From a virus: a stretch of DNA of 64,000 bases. Of this stretch, positions 30,018 to 57,164 are shown piece after piece. The stretch is from the IMG/VR virus record IMGVR_UViG_3300048577_000531, positions 1,459 to 65,458 of that record. One strand, written 5' to 3'. A program made the translations under genes and the position numbers. The notes beneath the pieces are model-generated. The model was not told the origin of the DNA, searched no databases, and worked only from the letters and a program-made list of their open reading frames with translations. Position 1 is the stretch's first letter. Each line of letters begins with the position of its first letter.

Positions 30018-31748
30018 TCAGAGGACGAGTAATGGCTCGCGATCGAGATAGGAGCCGCCGGCGGCGACAGTCGGATTTAAGCTCATCAACTGCGCCGCAT
30101 CTGCGAGCGCCATGAACGGATCGACCTTGCCGAAGCCCGCCTCGTCTCTTGCCACCATCATCGCGGTTCGCGTCGCGACCACACGAAGATTGCCGACGCA
30201 CCAGGCGAGCATGTCGGAACCGCAGTGACAGAACGAATAGTCCGCGAGCTTGATTTCCAGCGTCTTGATCGCGCCCATGAGCGCGATGCCTTGCGAGACG
30301 CTATCGAGCTCGTGGTCGTCGCCTTCCTGAGTCACGCCGATCTCGGCGAGCGCATCGACGATGGCGCCGATGCCGATACGGTCGACGCCGACCCCGCCGA
30401 GCAACCCGCGATCCTTGATCTTCTTCACCAGATCGACACAGTAGCGGATGTTGATCGGTGTTCCGATCTTGGTCACGTCTTCCGGCTTGACGTAGATGAA
30501 CTTGGTCAGATCGCCCTGCTGTTCGAACTTGTCGTAGTCGACGATGTTCGCCTTGCGCCGCTCGATGCCGACGTCGCTGATCATCGCATGCGCCCAACCG
30601 AGCCAGCGCTTGGTCACCTTCTCGCGGCCGATCACCGCGATGCCGAGCAAATCGTCAAGGCCGCCGCCGTCGATCCCGACCGTCACGACTTCGCAGCGAT
30701 CGAGAAGCGCATCGAGCGTGAGCGTCTTGTCGATTCCCCGCTCCCACACCAGCACGCCGGCCCAGGAGTCCGATCGCTCGGCCATTCCCGGTTCGACGTT
30801 GAGGTGCTTGGCGAAGAAGTTGATCAGCGACGAGCGGCCGGCGTGTTGCGCCTTGGCCATCTCGTCGACGAGATATTGCTCGCTGACGGAGACGTTGAGA
30901 TTCGGGTTCGGGATGTAGAAATATTCGCGCTTCTTGTAGTCCCCGCTTTCGATGAAGCGCTTCGGATATTCGTAGAGGACGCCGAGGCTACGCGGATCGC
31001 TGATCCTGCCGTCGCGCACGGCGCGGAAGTATTCCAGGCGCTGGGCATAGACGCCGGCCGGCGGTGCGTCGGGCTTGGTCGATGCCGAAATAACGAACCC
31101 TTCCGGCCGCGAGGCCAATCCGCCCTTCGCTTCGCGGATCATCGGTTCGGCGTTCGCGCGCTTGCCGAACAGCCACAGTTCGTCGATGAACAACCCGATG
31201 GTCTTCTTGCCGCCGACCGTTTCCGAGTCGGCCGCCACCACCTTGAGGAAAGCTCCGGTCTTCCGGTGCGTGATCATCCGAAAGTTCGGCTGCACGTGCA
31301 TCAAGGCCTTGAGCTCTTCATCGGCGTTGACCATGTCGCGCGCCGGGAAGAACGAATTGTCCGCGATCTCCTTCGTGGGGGCGAGAATGTAGAACTCGCC
31401 GGACTCACGCCAGTTGATGCTCAGTGCCGTCAACATCACGCCGGCGGCGAGCGTCGACTTGATGTTCTTCTTGGCGATGTCGAGGTGAAAGTCGTTGATC
31501 CACCTGATGCCGGTTTCCGGGTCGTAGGCTCCGAAGATCGCGCCCGCGAGATCGGTCGCCCATGGCTTGCACGACTCGCCCATCGTCGGCCGGTTGGCCA
31601 CATCGACGAGCCGCAGCGACTTGAACCGCTCGAGCGCGGCCTCGGCTTGGTCCGGAAACAACGGCGCGATCGGAATAAGCGACCGGCCTTCAACGATCCG
31701 CTGCTCCCAATCCTCGCACGCCGTCGACCACCAGGGAGCGACGATCAC
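30018..31748 (-). CDS. terL: Terminase large subunit
   Basis: IAKKNIKST (Walker A-like), LFIDELW (Walker B), GIDGGGLDD, KVDPFMA. Confidence 0.95.
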   Translation of the reverse strand: MIVAPWWSTACEDWEQRIVEGRSLIPIAPLFPDQAEAALERFKSLRLVDVANRPTMGESCKPWATDLAGAIFGAYDPETGIRWINDFHLDIAKKNIKSTLAAGVMLTALSINWRESGEFYILAPTKEIADNSFFPARDMVNADEELKALMHVQPNFRMITHRKTGAFLKVVAADSETVGGKKTIGLFIDELWLFGKRANAEPMIREAKGGLASRPEGFVISASTKPDAPPAGVYAQRLEYFRAVRDGRISDPRSLGVLYEYPKRFIESGDYKKREYFYIPNPNLNVSVSEQYLVDEMAKAQHAGRSSLINFFAKHLNVEPGMAERSDSWAGVLVWERGIDKTLTLDALLDRCEVVTVGIDGGGLDDLLGIAVIGREKVTKRWLGWAHAMISDVGIERRKANIVDYDKFEQQGDLTKFIYVKPEDVTKIGTPINIRYCVDLVKKIKDRGLLGGVGVDRIGIGAIVDALAEIGVTQEGDDHELDSVSQGIALMGAIKTLEIKLADYSFCHCGSDMLAWCVGNLRVVATRTAMMVARDEAGFGKVDPFMALADAAQLMSLNPTVAAGGSYLDREPLLVL

Positions 31749-32377
31749 TGTACCGCCTGCGTTCTACGCGGCGGCTCCGGAACAGCCCAGCGCCCTTGCG
31801 CTGCCGCCTCAGCGGCCCGCTGCGCCTGCTCCTTCTTGCCGAGCGGCTTTTCGCGCATCTCGTCCGGCATCCTGGCGGTTCCGACCGTCCCGCATTCGCG
31901 CTTGATCAGCGCCTTGTGAGCGGCCACCCGGGCGGTTTCGCTCAGGCTGTTGTCCGCGATCTTGGTGAGCACCAACACCGCCAAATTGGCGTATTGCTTC
32001 GCCTGCTCTCTGACCTCGCCGATCGCCGACGGCGCAAACGTCGGCGCCGCGGCGAACGGCAGCATGGGCGACGCGGCATCGCCGCCGATCTCCACGGCCG
32101 GCTTGCCGAAGCCGCGATCGAGCACTTCCTCAGCCGCGACGATCCGGGCGGAGTCGCTGCCGGCATGAAGCATGATGGCGACCAGCCCCTTGAGCGAGCT
32201 CTTAGCCCGGCCACGAAGGGCGCCGTCGATCTCGGTCGGCGCCGGCGCCGCCATCGCTGCTGCAAGATCAACGCCTGTCACCGCGGTCGGTGACTGCGCC
32301 GCCTTGGGCTTCCGCCCGGCACCCTTGCGGGCGCCGCCGCGTCGGCTGCCATCCTTCGCCACTCCCTTCGCAACCAC
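31745..32377 (-). CDS. terS: Terminase small subunit
   Basis: RGGARKGAGRKPK N-terminus; GKKEQAQRAA...GRW..PEPP C-terminus; overlaps terL start. Confidence 0.8.
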   Translation of the reverse strand: MVAKGVAKDGSRRGGARKGAGRKPKAAQSPTAVTGVDLAAAMAAPAPTEIDGALRGRAKSSLKGLVAIMLHAGSDSARIVAAEEVLDRGFGKPAVEIGGDAASPMLPFAAAPTFAPSAIGEVREQAKQYANLAVLVLTKIADNSLSETARVAAHKALIKRECGTVGTARMPDEMREKPLGKKEQAQRAAEAAAQGRWAVPEPPRRTQAVQ

Positions 32378-32474: not shown

Positions 32475-32822
32475 CTAGGGATTTTGACCCCCATCCCCCT
32501 GGTAGCGGCGCCGCCGTTCGTCCGCCGTTTTCCTGGTGTGGCAGGCGCCACATCGAAGCAGGATGTTCGTCTTGACGAGGGCGAGGTGCGGCGCATCACG
32601 CCGCTCTTTGATGTGGTCTCCGAAAATCCGAATGCCTGTGCGCTGCTTCGCCGGATCGTGCTCTGGATCTTCGCAGCGTCGACCACGCTCCTTGATGATC
32701 TGGTCCATCAAGGCTCGCCACTCGGGCGAGGTGTAGAAGGGATCGACCATCTTCTCCGCCGTCCTGACCTTGACCGAACGAGGCGGCCCAAGCTTCTGAC
32801 CAATGGAGCGAAGAACCGTCAT
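32475..32822 (-). CDS. HNH endonuclease (terminase-associated)
   Basis: FYTSPEWR, RCED, DHIKERRD, NILLRCGACHTRKT. Confidence 0.9.
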   Translation of the reverse strand: MTVLRSIGQKLGPPRSVKVRTAEKMVDPFYTSPEWRALMDQIIKERGRRCEDPEHDPAKQRTGIRIFGDHIKERRDAPHLALVKTNILLRCGACHTRKTADERRRRYQGDGGQNP

Positions 32823-32832
32823 CCTACCCTAT

Positions 32833-32868
32833 GAACGAAAGCGGGCCGCACCGTTGCCGGGCGGCCCG
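32833..32868 (-). terminator. Hairpin with T-rich tail (late leader unit 3)
   Basis: CGGGCCGC/GCGGCCCG stem at 32842-32868 followed by CTTTCGTTC on the minus strand. Confidence 0.55.
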
Positions 32869-32949
32869 AAGTCAAGGGAGGAAACGCCCAAGGAGGGCAC
32901 CGAAGTGAGCCACGTTCAACGGGGGTCAAACGCGTCTCAACCTATGGGT

Positions 32950-32994
32950 ATGAAACGAGTGAGGCCCGGGCACCCTTTCGGATGTCCGGGCCTC
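32950..32994 (-). terminator. GAAA-loop hairpin (late leader unit 2)
   Basis: GAGGCCCGGACATCC-GAAA-GGGTGCCCGGGCCTC, then ACTCGTTTC. Confidence 0.5.
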
Positions 32995-33071
32995 TTCGCG
33001 CACCAGGAGGGAGGGGTCGACTTTGCCAGCCCGGCATGGTCGGGCCGCACGCCGCTACACCCTATGTCCTG

Positions 33072-33108
33072 AAAAGCGAAAGCCCGGCGCATCACTGCGG
33101 CCGGGCTT
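33072..33108 (-). terminator. Intrinsic-terminator-like hairpin (late leader unit 1)
   Basis: AAGCCCGG/CCGGGCTT stem followed by TCGCTTTT. Confidence 0.65.
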
Positions 33109-33143
33109 CATTATCTCGTGCGCTGCCATCCCGCGTGGTCGGG

Positions 33144-33191
33144 ATCGTGATTACGTTCGTGATCGTTATCGTGATCGAATTCGTGATCAGA
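33144..33191. repeat. Four 12-bp tandem repeats, core WTCGTGAT
   Basis: ATCGTGATTACG / TTCGTGATCGTT / ATCGTGATCGAA / TTCGTGATCAGA. Confidence 0.9.
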
Positions 33192-33864
33192 GCTTTTCGA
33201 TGTCGCCTAATTCCATTTCGACAGGCGTCTCACGACCGAAGATGTGTACCAGAAGCTTGAGTCGGCACGTAGAGTCAAGTTCCGAAATCGGCACGTCGGG
33301 GAGTTCTTCCACAGTCGCATTGAACATCGCAAACGGCCCAGCCGCCACTCGCACCACCTCGCCGACGTCATACGCCAACTGCCGAATACTGATTTCCGAG
33401 CGGATCGCGTGCTTGTTGTCCTCCCTCGATCGCAGCACGTCAATCGCAGCATCGGCAACAGGTGCCGGCAACGGTCGGCCCCCGGACTCCTGGCACACCA
33501 TGCCCTTGATGCCCATGAGGTCGAATACCTCGTGCCATTGTCCATCGAACAAGCTGAACCGGATGAACAGGTAGCGCGGGAACATGGGGACCAGGATCGG
33601 CGCCTTGACCGCGAACGGACTGCGCCGCTGCTTCGGTGACAGCTTGTTCTTCGGCACTTTTCTGACTTCGTAAGTCTTCGGGTAGTAGACTTCGTAGCCA
33701 CCATTTTCGAGACCCTTGATCGCCCGCGCATCACTGTCGTGCGTGCTGAACCCGAGGTACCACGCCGGCCCTTCGGGCAGCGGCGCGACGATGTTGACCT
33801 CTTGCCACGACCGCTTGCTTAGCGGCTCGGCGTGTTCTTCCTTCGCTCGAATTCCCATGTACAT
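33187..33864 (-). CDS. NusG/RfaH-family transcription antiterminator (NGN plus KOW)
   Basis: WYLG..., VPMFPRYLFIRF, DVGEVVRVAAGPFAMFNATV, LVHIFGRETPVEM; RBS GGAGGGAGG before ATG 33864. Confidence 0.92.
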   Translation of the reverse strand: MYMGIRAKEEHAEPLSKRSWQEVNIVAPLPEGPAWYLGFSTHDSDARAIKGLENGGYEVYYPKTYEVRKVPKNKLSPKQRRSPFAVKAPILVPMFPRYLFIRFSLFDGQWHEVFDLMGIKGMVCQESGGRPLPAPVADAAIDVLRSREDNKHAIRSEISIRQLAYDVGEVVRVAAGPFAMFNATVEELPDVPISELDSTCRLKLLVHIFGRETPVEMELGDIEKL

Positions 33865-33908: not shown

Positions 33909-34748
33909 TCACTCGGCTGCCTGCGGCGGCGGTCCTGTCGCACTGCCGTCGTTGGGTGGGTAGAGGCTCGGCAGGTACCAGCCACGCCGCCGCTTGCCGT
34001 CGACCTCGGCTGTCGTGACCGGCAGCGAGCCGACGCCAGTCGTTCGCTTGCGGTAGGCACACCACGATCGCCAAGCGTCCGAATTTTCGAACACGAACGT
34101 CCGGGCTGATGCCTTCGCTGCGAGTTCCCTAATCCGTTCTCGCTCGATCGCTTCGTCCTGCGCCTTCCTCGAAAAGCCGACGGCGGGAGTCCGAGTCTGT
34201 GAGTCAGTAGTAGTAGATTTGGGTTCTGATGACGTTTGTGGGGTGCCACCTATGGCACTCGGCACTCGGTCGCCGTGGCACTCGGCACCCGGTACTTTTC
34301 CACAGGTCGACGGCTCAGATTCACCGGGTGCCATCATGGCACCCGGAGTTACGTCGGTTTCTTCGGTTCCATCGGGGTTTCCGTCGTCGTCGACCACGTC
34401 AGGTTCCGGCCCGTCGACCGCGTCCGCGACCTCATCTTCCGGCCGCGTCCACATCCATTCGCCCCACTCCGCGGCATTGCGATCCAGCTGCAGGTAGTAG
34501 GTGTTGTTGCGCTGGCGCCCGTGGTCGTCGCGGGTCTTTTCGATGCGGATGTAGCCGTTCCGCTGCAGGGCATAGAGGTGGCGCATCAGCGAGCGCTTGG
34601 GCACGCTGGTCTCCCGGGACAGCAGATCCAGCCCCGGGAAGCACATCCCCGTGACGCGGTCGGCGCGGTTGGCAAGTGCCAGCAGCACCACCTTTGGCTT
34701 GGGCGGGAGTTCTTGATCGAACGCCCAGGTCATAGCTTGAACGGTCAC
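33909..34748 (-). CDS. HTH replication initiator (lambda O-like)
   Basis: AMTWAF...KVVLLALANRAD...CFPGLDLLSRETSV.KRSL.RHL..L...GYI. Confidence 0.8.
   Translation of the reverse strand: MTVQAMTWAFDQELPPKPKVVLLALANRADRVTGMCFPGLDLLSRETSVPKRSLMRHLYALQRNGYIRIEKTRDDHGRQRNNTYYLQLDRNAAEWGEWMWTRPEDEVADAVDGPEPDVVDDDGNPDGTEETDVTPGAMMAPGESEPSTCGKVPGAECHGDRVPSAIGGTPQTSSEPKSTTTDSQTRTPAVGFSRKAQDEAIERERIRELAAKASARTFVFENSDAWRSWCAYRKRTTGVGSLPVTTAEVDGKRRRGWYLPSLYPPNDGSATGPPPQAAE
34241..34346. repeat. Iteron-like TGGCAC repeats and palindromes inside the initiator gene (candidate origin)
   Basis: TGGCACTCGGCAC(T/C)CGG twice, GTGCCA-N4-TGGCAC, and an 11-bp inverted repeat CCGGGTGCCAT-C-ATGGCACCCGG. Confidence 0.65.
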
Positions 34749-42112: not shown

Positions 42113-42460
42113 TCACACCATCCCAAGGGCGACCAAGTACGTATCGAGGATCGCTTCCTGCTCCGCCCGTTCATCCTTGTCCTGCTTACGCAGGCGGATG
42201 ACGGCACGGAGGGCTTTGGTGTCGAAGCCGTTACCCTTCGCTTCCGCGTAGACGTCGCGGATGTCGTCGGAGATGGTTTTCTTTTCCTCTTCGAGACGCT
42301 CGATGCGTTCGACGAAGGCGCGGAGTTGATCCTTGGCGAAGCGGGGGCCGGGGCCGGCGCGCTCCGAGGTGAGCGCGTCCGCAGCCTTGCGAATGCCCTC
42401 GGTCGTGGTGTGGATCGGCTCTTGGCCGGGCACTGTGATCGTCACGCTGCAGTCTTCCAT
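42113..42460 (-). CDS. GapR-like DNA-binding protein (DUF2312)
   Basis: [48 protein letters not shown]. Confidence 0.92.
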
Positions 42461-56538: not shown

Positions 56539-56775
56539 ATGGGCTGCCATCCGAACATCACGGCGACCAAGTTTCCGAAGCAATCGAAGGTCGGCGAGCC
56601 GTGCAAGGTGTTGTTTCACTACGGCGCCGGCGGCGAGGCGCGGGGCGTGATCGTCCGCGACGACGTCGGGGAACCATGGATCGGCATCATCAAGCTCGAT
56701 GACGGCCGGCACATCCTGTTCACCGAATGCCAGTATCAGCCGCTGTCGCTGGCGTTGCCGAAAGGAAGCGCCTGA
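56539..56775 (+). CDS. Hypothetical phage protein (SH3-like)
   Basis: RBS GAGAGGAAGG; GVIVRDD..EP...IKLDDGR. Confidence 0.6.
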   Translation: MGCHPNITATKFPKQSKVGEPCKVLFHYGAGGEARGVIVRDDVGEPWIGIIKLDDGRHILFTECQYQPLSLALPKGSA

Positions 56776-56777
56776 CG

Positions 56778-57164
56778 ATGACCCTCACCTCCCGCCAGCG
56801 CGAAGAGCTTTACGACCTCTGCCGCGGCGAGGCGGAATATCCGACGTGCAACATTTGCGGCGGATTGATCCTGAAGGGGCAGCGCTGGCACGAGAGCCAC
56901 AATCCCTTGCTGCCTGGGGCGATCGGCGGCGAGGTCACCGGCATCGCACACGAGCGCTGCAACTTGCGCCACAACAACCTTCACGACACCCCGCTTGTCG
57001 CCAAGGTCAAGCGCCAACGCCAGCAGGATATCGGCGCCTACGTCAAAGCGCCGACGTCGCGGCCGATGCCGGGCTCCAGGCGCAGCGGAATCAAGATGTT
57101 CATGGACCGCCGCCGCCAGCCCATCTGGCGAGACAGCGGGCGGCCGGTCGGGAGGGAGAGATGA
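56778..57164 (+). CDS. HNH-like protein
   Basis: CNICG...WHESH...AHERCN..HN. Confidence 0.7.
   Translation: MTLTSRQREELYDLCRGEAEYPTCNICGGLILKGQRWHESHNPLLPGAIGGEVTGIAHERCNLRHNNLHDTPLVAKVKRQRQQDIGAYVKAPTSRPMPGSRRSGIKMFMDRRRQPIWRDSGRPVGRER

Follow-up and report, generated by a model that had tools for sequence, protein, structure and literature searches.

An suhB/MmgR-family RNA between a NusG-like gene and the packaging genes of a prophage: a candidate antitermination-gated late leader

A 283-bp region on the minus strand of a prophage, located between a gene for a NusG paralogue and the first gene of the packaging operon, contains a genuine member of the RF00519 (suhB/MmgR) small RNA family, extended by a 5' hairpin. 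Its best explanation is that of a leader through which the late (packaging/head) operon of the prophage is regulated. By analogy with lambda PR'-tR' and StxS, the leader may be gated by antitermination, with the NusG paralogue as the antiterminator and an anti-Shine-Dalgarno (anti-SD) sRNA as the short product; we assign this whole reading a probability of about 0.5.

Organization of the leader

The window, that is, the whole 64-kb stretch of DNA analysed here, is part of an IMG/VR provirus record of 65.5 kb, and the relevant genes all lie on its minus strand (Table 1). A gap of 365 nt separates the NusG-like gene from the HNH gene. Read along the minus strand, this region consists of T1, box 1, unit 2 (hairpin, CCCCUCCCUCC, T2), box 2, unit 3 (SL1, GCCC/GGGC hairpin, UUUCCUCCCU, T3), box 3, and the HNH start codon. 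The plan of a unit is best explained as a box (CA-TAGG(G/T)T), a 5' hairpin, a single-stranded C/U-rich anti-SD segment, and an intrinsic terminator, with two such units in tandem after T1. A preliminary description had regarded the region as a late leader beside nusG, and this is supported, with a NusG paralogue as the neighbour.

Table 1. Features of the leader and of the adjoining genes (window coordinates)
Feature	Position	Strand	Remarks
Replication-initiator-like gene	33909-34748	minus	
NusG-like (NGN+KOW) gene	33187-33861	minus	Last gene before the late operon; candidate antiterminator
Five direct repeats, GATCACGA-like words	33135-33191	minus	12-nt period; begin at the NusG-like stop codon
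T1, terminator hairpin and U-rich tract of the NusG-like gene	33071-33109	minus	Fold
Box 1, CATAGGGT	33059-33066	minus	
Unit 2	32947-33058	minus	Fold; 5' hairpin, single-stranded CCCCUCCCUCC (33016-33003), T2 (32961-32994)
Box 2, CATAGGTT	32939-32946	minus	
SL1 of unit 3, 5' hairpin	32906-32939	minus	Fold
Unit 3 core, suhB/MmgR-family RNA with U-rich tail	32835-32905	minus	RF00519 match
Unit 3 SL2, GCCC-UCCUU-GGGC	32886-32898	minus	
Unit 3 single-stranded GUUUCCUCCCUU	32885-32874	minus	
Unit 3 T3	32843-32867	minus	
Box 3, CATAGGGT	32826-32833	minus	5 nt upstream of the HNH start codon
HNH endonuclease gene	32475-32822	minus	First of the packaging operon; PHROG HNH families, E 3e-14
TerS gene	31745-32377	minus	Downstream of HNH
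TerL gene	30018-31748	minus	Downstream of HNH; Pfam TerL domains

The GC-rich hairpins reported ahead of each CATAGG were borne out by comparison with shuffled sequences, which fold less well: the T1 region reached -25.8 kcal/mol (z -3.4), unit 2 -53.3 (z -2.4), and unit 3 -49.3 kcal/mol (z -4.1), with z -5.3 for the whole leader. The T-tracts downstream of T2 and T3 are interrupted, and the U-tract of T2 is poor. A simple terminator scan flagged none of T1, T2, and T3 (0/3) because their stems are bulged. The division of the array into three units proved only partly right; units 2 and 3 are sRNA-like, and what had been counted as the first unit is just the NusG-like gene's terminator. The GGATGGCAGCGCA...hairpin...TTTCGCTTTTCAGG-CATAGG block of T1 has homologues in two related loci (L089 and L112; L numbers denote individual loci of the comparison described below), and every terminator in the leaders, T1 included, is followed by a box.

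Repeats comparable to those at the stop codon of the NusG-like gene (4-5 copies, period ~12 nt) were also observed after the stop codon in L089, L112, L103, L116, L053, L077, and L244-L254. The repeated word varies by phage, being CAGCCACCC in L089, L112, and L103 and GTCACG in L053 and L077, with CAGCCATCC and GCCACG also found in relatives. A GGATGGCAGCGCA-like block, common to the relatives, comes after the repeat array. Judged by their layout, the arrays look like phage-specific protein-binding sites (iterons or activator sites).

Unit 3 as an suhB/MmgR RNA and unit 2 as its possible duplicate

A covariance scan against Rfam, as proposed in the preliminary description, placed unit 3 in RF00519 above the curated cut-off, with 56.1 bits (gathering 41, E 3.4e-10) over the full model (1-77). 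This match (32828-32905) was obtained on the minus strand only, and no other Rfam family matched anywhere in the window. Unit 3 was also recognized by model R1, from whose construction the window was excluded (46.4 bits, E 4e-11). The RF00519 match covers the helix, the unpaired GUUUCCUCCCU anti-SD tract, and the terminator, in agreement with the fold, in which the GCCC-UCCUU-GGGC helix and the T3 hairpin are formed and GUUUCCUCCCUU is unpaired. The C/U-rich motifs described earlier at 33016-33003 and 32897-32874 are found at these positions, and their proposed connection with an alphaproteobacterial anti-SD sRNA family agrees with the RF00519 membership of unit 3.

The suhB motif is known from many alphaproteobacteria, in multiple copies that each have their own promoter and terminator and no fixed neighbours (Corbino et al., PMC1273637). 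Known members of RF00519 include S. meliloti MmgR (alpha-r8) and Sphingopyxis SuhB, and the family shares a clan with AbcR-type RNAs. MmgR, SuhB, and AbcR are Hfq-dependent trans-acting RNAs that use C/U-rich anti-SD sequences to base-pair with ribosome-binding sites (PMC7143759; 10.64898/2025.12.09.693200). The seed in MmgR, AbcR, and NfeR1 is an anti-SD motif (PMC7143759), and SuhB together with Hfq represses the translation of its targets (10.64898/2025.12.09.693200). Unit 3 resembles these RNAs in its GCCC/GGGC helix, unpaired GUUUCCUCCCU, and intrinsic terminator, and in belonging to a multi-copy, mobile family (PMC1273637). It differs from them in having the extra SL1, in being headed by a CATAGG box where a -35/-10 promoter would stand, and in its location in a prophage, after a NusG paralogue and ahead of an SD-less late operon rather than at the chromosomal mmgR site. 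For the alpha-r8 mmgR orthologues, a conserved chromosomal microsynteny is reported in the work of Lagares et al. 2016, as cited in PMC5913331; the neighbours of unit 3 are instead the NusG-like, HNH, TerS, and TerL genes.

The added 5' hairpin is itself a conserved structure. SL1 of unit 3 in the window is 13 nt longer than that of its relatives and of another sequence, and it occupies the same position. In a 28-sequence alignment, the SL1 interior differs between phages yet pairs (94.9% of cells paired), and the covariation across related prophages that the preliminary description had called for is seen in seven pairs with compensatory changes on both sides. Only 0-1 of 500 shuffles reached the observed values, and slid registers fell to 27-64% paired. 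SL1 contains many G-U pairs, and the strand is therefore fixed. The SL2 helix is invariant in the 28 relatives and thus contributes no evidence of covariation. An RfaH ops site in SL1 was considered as a defining feature and rejected: the 9-nt GCGGTAGCG occurs only in part of the family, the stem interior covaries, and the protein of the window resembles NusG more than RfaH. Unit 3 of the window lacks GCGGTAGCG and is not a member of the ops element class (12-nt GGCGGTAGnnTG).

Unit 2 follows the plan of box, hairpin, single-stranded CCCCUCCCUCC, and terminator. It gave no Rfam match at E<=10; blastn disclosed no homologues in IMG/VR, and a 14-nt pattern scan returned unrelated matches only. 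Model R1 aligned to unit 2 as box, 42 nt, and CCUCCCU, a spacing that is the model's own, with a score that is not significant (8.2 bits, E 0.46). We read unit 2 as a degenerate duplicate and a candidate second sRNA. A first unit ahead of the MmgR-like unit is also present in L002, L005, L053, L091, L095, L102, L103, and L254, and most of these first units contain GGAG, a 7-9 nt gap, and an ATG with a stop after 0-4 codons. Such conserved start-stop mini-ORFs were observed between box and terminator in the first units of L002 (~2890-2925), L091, L053, L103, L005, L095, and L244, and CCUCCUC tracts take the place of the start-stop element, or accompany it, in L254, L069, and L053.

A duplex target scan within the window yielded only non-specific GC-rich matches. 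The best match of unit 2 (56771-56810) is antisense to the start of a plus-strand gene; it was rejected as a target, being antisense to a gene start and thus a sequence resemblance. The start of this plus-strand ORF (56776-56803, ATGACCCTCACCTCCCGCCAGCGCGAAGAG) resembles the unit-2 seed in the same sense, with ~22/28 nt in common and a 10-nt exact run, and the likeness is probably due to chance.

Gene order and boxes among the relatives

A blastn search with the core of the RNA recovered the Bradyrhizobium phage ppBeUSDA76-1 and many Methylobacterium, Bradyrhizobium, and Microvirga plasmids, and a pattern search located the exact 17-nt core in at least 119 IMG/VR contigs. We assembled 123 loci from the listed IMG/VR matches together with the phage, plasmid, and window loci, and annotated them by iterative local HMM searches seeded with the proteins of the window. 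A NusG-like ORF ends 110-770 nt upstream of the RNA, on the same strand, in at least 33 of the 123 loci (window included); in L120 it lies ~3.3 kb upstream. HNH was detected in at least 23 of the 123 loci and TerL in at least 22, almost all of them just downstream of the RNA, and an HTH_36 replication-type gene in at least 22 of the 123, almost all upstream of it. The common order is NusG-like gene, terminator, box, SL1, anti-SD RNA, terminator, and first late gene. This order is kept in the cultured Bradyrhizobium phages ppBeUSDA76-1 and ppBdUSDA122-1, in whose records the RNA is unannotated; of their upstream proteins, one matches Pfam NusG (25.7 bits) and the other NusG (21.7 bits) and KOW (18.3 bits).

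The NusG-like protein of the window matches Pfam NusG (44.5 bits) and PHROG 6386 ('transcription antiterminator'). Among PDB entries it matched E. coli NusG with E 3e-14 versus E 0.9 for RfaH; by these scores it is nearer to NusG than to RfaH. The phage NusG-like proteins have diverged widely, to a mean identity of 22%, and in L007, L040, L096, L071, L082, L105, and L014 the NGN domain is kept and KOW is replaced by a Lys/Arg-rich tail (KKKRRWKNRK-like). The alignment of all 28 proteins was too divergent for a profile search, and a six-member subfamily was used. With this six-member profile we could check the association starting from the NusG-like subfamily and not from the RNA. An anti-SD RNA unit was found just downstream of the gene in 8 of the 11 closest IMG/VR relatives (33-45% identity), scoring 33-80 bits with model R1. 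The sRNA body is absent in the remaining three (L244, L251, and L252), so the switch does not require the RNA. Terminator and box are what remains constant, and the anti-SD RNA often accompanies them without being a requirement. A search with the NusG-like protein revealed no close relatives of the window's phage in IMG/VR, and a TerL search in the species genomes gave one match, with 52% identity and without the RNA.

The preliminary description had located plus-strand CCTATG (minus-strand CATAGG) at 32828, 32941, and 33061, with spacings of 113 and 120 bp, and these positions proved accurate. The minus strand of the window contains six CATAGG in all, three of them inside 239 nt; this clustering is not attributable to chance, since ~0.02 are expected per 239-nt span at the density of the window. 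The same description held that CATAGG closes each unit, but it opens the next one, on the 5' side: the distance from box to SL1 is fixed at 4 nt in the relatives, whereas 7 to 17 nt separate the box from the upstream hairpin, so we assign the box to the unit that follows. In 24 loci, the core is preceded by CATAGG at a distance of 38-55 nt, most often 41-46 nt, compared with ~0.6 loci by chance, and ~15 further loci display the variants CGTAGG, CTAGGG, CTAAGG, TATAGG, and GGTAGG at the same place. A logo of 36 sequences reads cA-TAGG(G/T)T-GTGCGG, with invariant T-A-G-G; upstream of it come a GC hairpin and a T-rich tract.

The box may mark either a promoter or a processing site. A -35 element sought upstream of the box was absent from the logo of 36 sequences, and a promoter scan of the window leader revealed no promoter-like site. 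The invariant AGG is unusual for a sigma-70 -10 hexamer, and taking TAGGGT as this hexamer would place the start inside SL1 and, at box 3, past the ATG. The box lies 0-5 nt upstream of an ATG in the window, L252, L244, L246, and L023, a position that fits a processing or recognition site better than a promoter. The CATAGGGTAG(G/C)ATG junction of box 3 is also found in L252, there ahead of a different first late gene. Canonical promoters are present at copies without a NusG-like gene, for example L017, L073, and L123; in L073 the predicted start is just ahead of SL1, and L123 displays TTGACA, 16 nt, and TAGGTT ahead of its RNA copy. A sigma-54 promoter with TTGCA as the -12 element was rejected, as the GG-to-GC spacing is inconsistent and TTGC is missing in many loci (by eye). 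The box directly before a tRNA in L074, considered as evidence of processing, was dropped because this 'box' is the acceptor stem of a tRNA-Met.

Elsewhere in other phages, the RNA family occurs before capsid (Phage_capsid_2), Mu-F-like, and TerS genes, and it is also found on plasmids. Anti-SD RNAs inside late operons may thus be a wider habit of alphaproteobacterial phages. In L028, L015, L032, L050, and L054 (core at ~830, 9694, 2337, 3756, and 1104, respectively), the RNA comes right after the upstream stop codon, and downstream of it lie a TTGACA-type promoter and the gene for a Phage_capsid_2 major capsid protein; from this arrangement it looks like a 3'-UTR-type sRNA within the head operon. 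The Microcystis phage Mwe-JY08 (PP395640.1) contains at 42325-42354 a stretch of 30 nt that is 100% identical to the MmgR-like core, under a 'hypothetical protein'. Mwe-JY08 is a cyanophage, and its host group is unexpected for the suhB/MmgR RNA family. A tRNA directly follows the MmgR-like RNA in L074 (6068-6145, tRNA-Met) and L034 (2784-2859, tRNA-Thr), and these segments may be host flank or an attachment site, not phage DNA. In L183, L232, and L234, around a CCCCTCCCTCCTGG match, TATAGG, a CCCCUCCCUCCUGGGG tract, GCGGTAG, and CCCTCCTTGG lie within ~120 nt, and this block may be another relative of the anti-SD leader RNAs.

Late-gene starts, competing explanations, and known systems

In the window, the HNH start codon is located 20 nt past the T3 stem, and no AGGA, GGAG, or GAGG precedes it. 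The start codon lies 7-23 nt past the terminator stem in 14 of 22 HNH loci (those with the terminator correctly placed by the automated fold), and inspection by eye disclosed five more in which it is equally near. An SD-like motif (AGGA, GGAG, or GAGG) upstream of the late start codon was present in only 2 of the 22. There is no room for a separate promoter past the terminator, and therefore the late mRNA must start upstream and pass through the sRNA terminator. This geometry forces late transcription through the leader terminators, which had already been suspected of standing in the path of the late genes. The leader thus has a terminator between the regulatory and the late genes, with no alternative promoter.

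We infer that transcription starts at the box or close to it and is terminated in the leader, that the NusG paralogue brings about antitermination, and that the RNA acts in trans. For the late genes to be expressed, RNA polymerase would have to read through T2 and T3. Encoded just upstream, in the place that Q has in lambda, the NusG paralogue is the obvious candidate for making the polymerase terminator-resistant. In its absence, transcription would stop at T2 or T3 and RNAs of ~100 nt would be released, whose anti-SD seeds could act in trans on host or phage mRNAs, like those of MmgR, SuhB, and AbcR. Lambda PR'-6S-tR' and StxS would thereby have a counterpart in alphaproteobacteria.

Units 2 and 3 could instead be stand-alone cargo sRNA genes, each with its own promoter (the box) and terminator, inserted at a permissive module junction. 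Their expression would then be constitutive or lysogenic, the NusG paralogue would have other targets, and the late genes would depend on leaky read-through or on box 3. This agrees with the multiple copies of suhB RNAs, their own promoters and terminators, and their lack of fixed neighbours (PMC1273637), with the same family at other phage sites (capsid, Mu-F, TerS) and on plasmids, with the three close NusG-like relatives that lack the RNA, and with the TTGACA-16 nt-TAGGTT sequence of L123 and the canonical promoter of L073 that starts just ahead of SL1. We nevertheless consider it rather unlikely, given the tight, repeated placement before an SD-less late gene, no more than 23 nt past the terminator and with no other route for late transcription, the retention of the unit in 8 of the 11 closest NusG-like relatives, and a box without a -35 element. 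Similarly doubtful is a leader that acts purely as a barrier in cis, in which the boxes would be RNA cleavage or recognition sites between modules and no late promoter would lie in the leader. Transcription from the early/middle operon would cross the NusG-like gene but end at T1-T3 as long as too little antiterminator has accumulated, and the C/U tracts would pair in cis, with the purine-rich boxes or with the SD and start-stop elements of the relatives, rather than being trans sRNAs. In its favour are the box after every leader terminator, T1 included, and the boxes 0-5 nt before the ATG (window, L252, L244, L246, and L023), where a -10 element would have no room. The AGG that never varies in the box is SD-like and rich in purines, first leader units in relatives have GGAG, 7-9 nt, ATG, and a stop after 0-4 codons, and StxS is matured by RNase E (PMC7547250). 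However, the RF00519 members characterised to date are trans-acting, and no covariation between box and anti-SD segment was seen; loci with CCCTGAC have an unchanged box.

SL1 and SL2 might also constitute a protein-independent antiterminator RNA of the HK022 put or EAR type that modifies the polymerase in cis, as two stem-loops between the start region and the terminator resemble put and the structure of SL1 is conserved. We regard this as very improbable: the sRNA family to which the RNA belongs acts in trans, a cis antiterminator immediately ahead of a terminator would serve no purpose unless it could be switched, and the neighbouring gene encodes a dedicated NusG paralogue. Moreover, no sequence similarity to the put or EAR models in Rfam was found. 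Least credible of all is a small protein encoded on the plus strand, for which the GGAGG motifs would be ribosome-binding sites, serving either the ORF at 32803-33072 (89 aa) or a GTG at ~32904. The 89-aa ORF is open, but it has no Pfam match, the covariance-model match is confined to the minus strand, and the G-U pairs of SL1 would become A-C mismatches on the other strand. In addition, the distance between box and core (38 to 55 nt) varies by non-multiples of three, and two antisense frames are about equally open in the relatives, as expected in GC-rich DNA, where the openness of antisense ORFs was discarded as an uninformative coding test.

The antitermination-gated leader, our preferred reading, can be compared with several established systems. 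Tandem anti-SD sRNAs with hairpins and their own terminators are represented by CcsR1-4 of Rhodobacter. AbcR1/AbcR2 of rhizobia share with the leader the tandem units, the hairpins, the unpaired C/U-rich anti-SD segments, and the separate terminators (PMC7143759). AbcR and CcsR are chromosomal stress or nutrient regulators, whereas the array described here is a phage leader with a degenerate first unit. In lambda PR'-6S-tR' with Q, and in StxS, a short leader RNA likewise ends at a terminator between the last regulatory gene and the late genes, and late expression needs antitermination, a point on which the late leader of the window may be likened to them. The Hfq-bound, trans-acting sRNA StxS is the short transcript that runs from the late promoter of Stx phages to tR' (PMC7547250). 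Unlike these cases, the candidate antiterminator here is a NusG paralogue and not Q, the RNA is of a host sRNA family, and both terminators and units are in tandem.

Specialised NusG paralogues beside their target operons are well established; genes controlled by RfaH lack an SD, and rfaH-like prophage genes have been noted (PMC7819879, PMC7593976). As with RfaH/ops, LoaP, UpxY, and TaA, an NGN(+KOW) gene adjoins a long operon with leader terminators (PMC7819879, PMC7593976). In contrast to RfaH/ops, the protein of the window is nearer to housekeeping NusG, and there is no conserved ops element. In the searchable literature, which is incomplete, we found no paper linking suhB/MmgR RNAs to prophage late operons, so that the gap counts as absence of evidence and no more; a review of phage sRNAs from 2025 mentions no alphaproteobacterial case. 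The RNA family is thus a known one, its phage context appears to be undescribed, and the mechanism is plausible.

These findings give a recurrent context, the prophage late leader beside a NusG paralogue, to a subset of the suhB RNAs, which have been known since 2005 as multi-copy RNAs without fixed neighbours. Should the antitermination model hold, it would provide a phage-borne NusG paralogue with a target and a testable leader, and, alongside StxS, it would be a second independent case in which a by-product RNA of antitermination has a regulatory role. The presence of the module in two cultured Bradyrhizobium phages makes it testable at the bench. More tentatively, a widespread group of temperate phages of alphaproteobacteria, of the Bradyrhizobium/Methylobacterium type, could use a NusG paralogue to time their late genes via a leader that copies the MmgR/AbcR-type anti-SD regulator of the host, with the sRNA entering the carbon/nutrient regulon of the host when late transcription is blocked. 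If this is true, part of the multi-copy suhB RNAs in these genomes would be prophage late leaders. The module suggests how prophages might gain access to the regulons that rhizobia and methylotrophs control with anti-SD sRNAs (PHB, ABC transporters).
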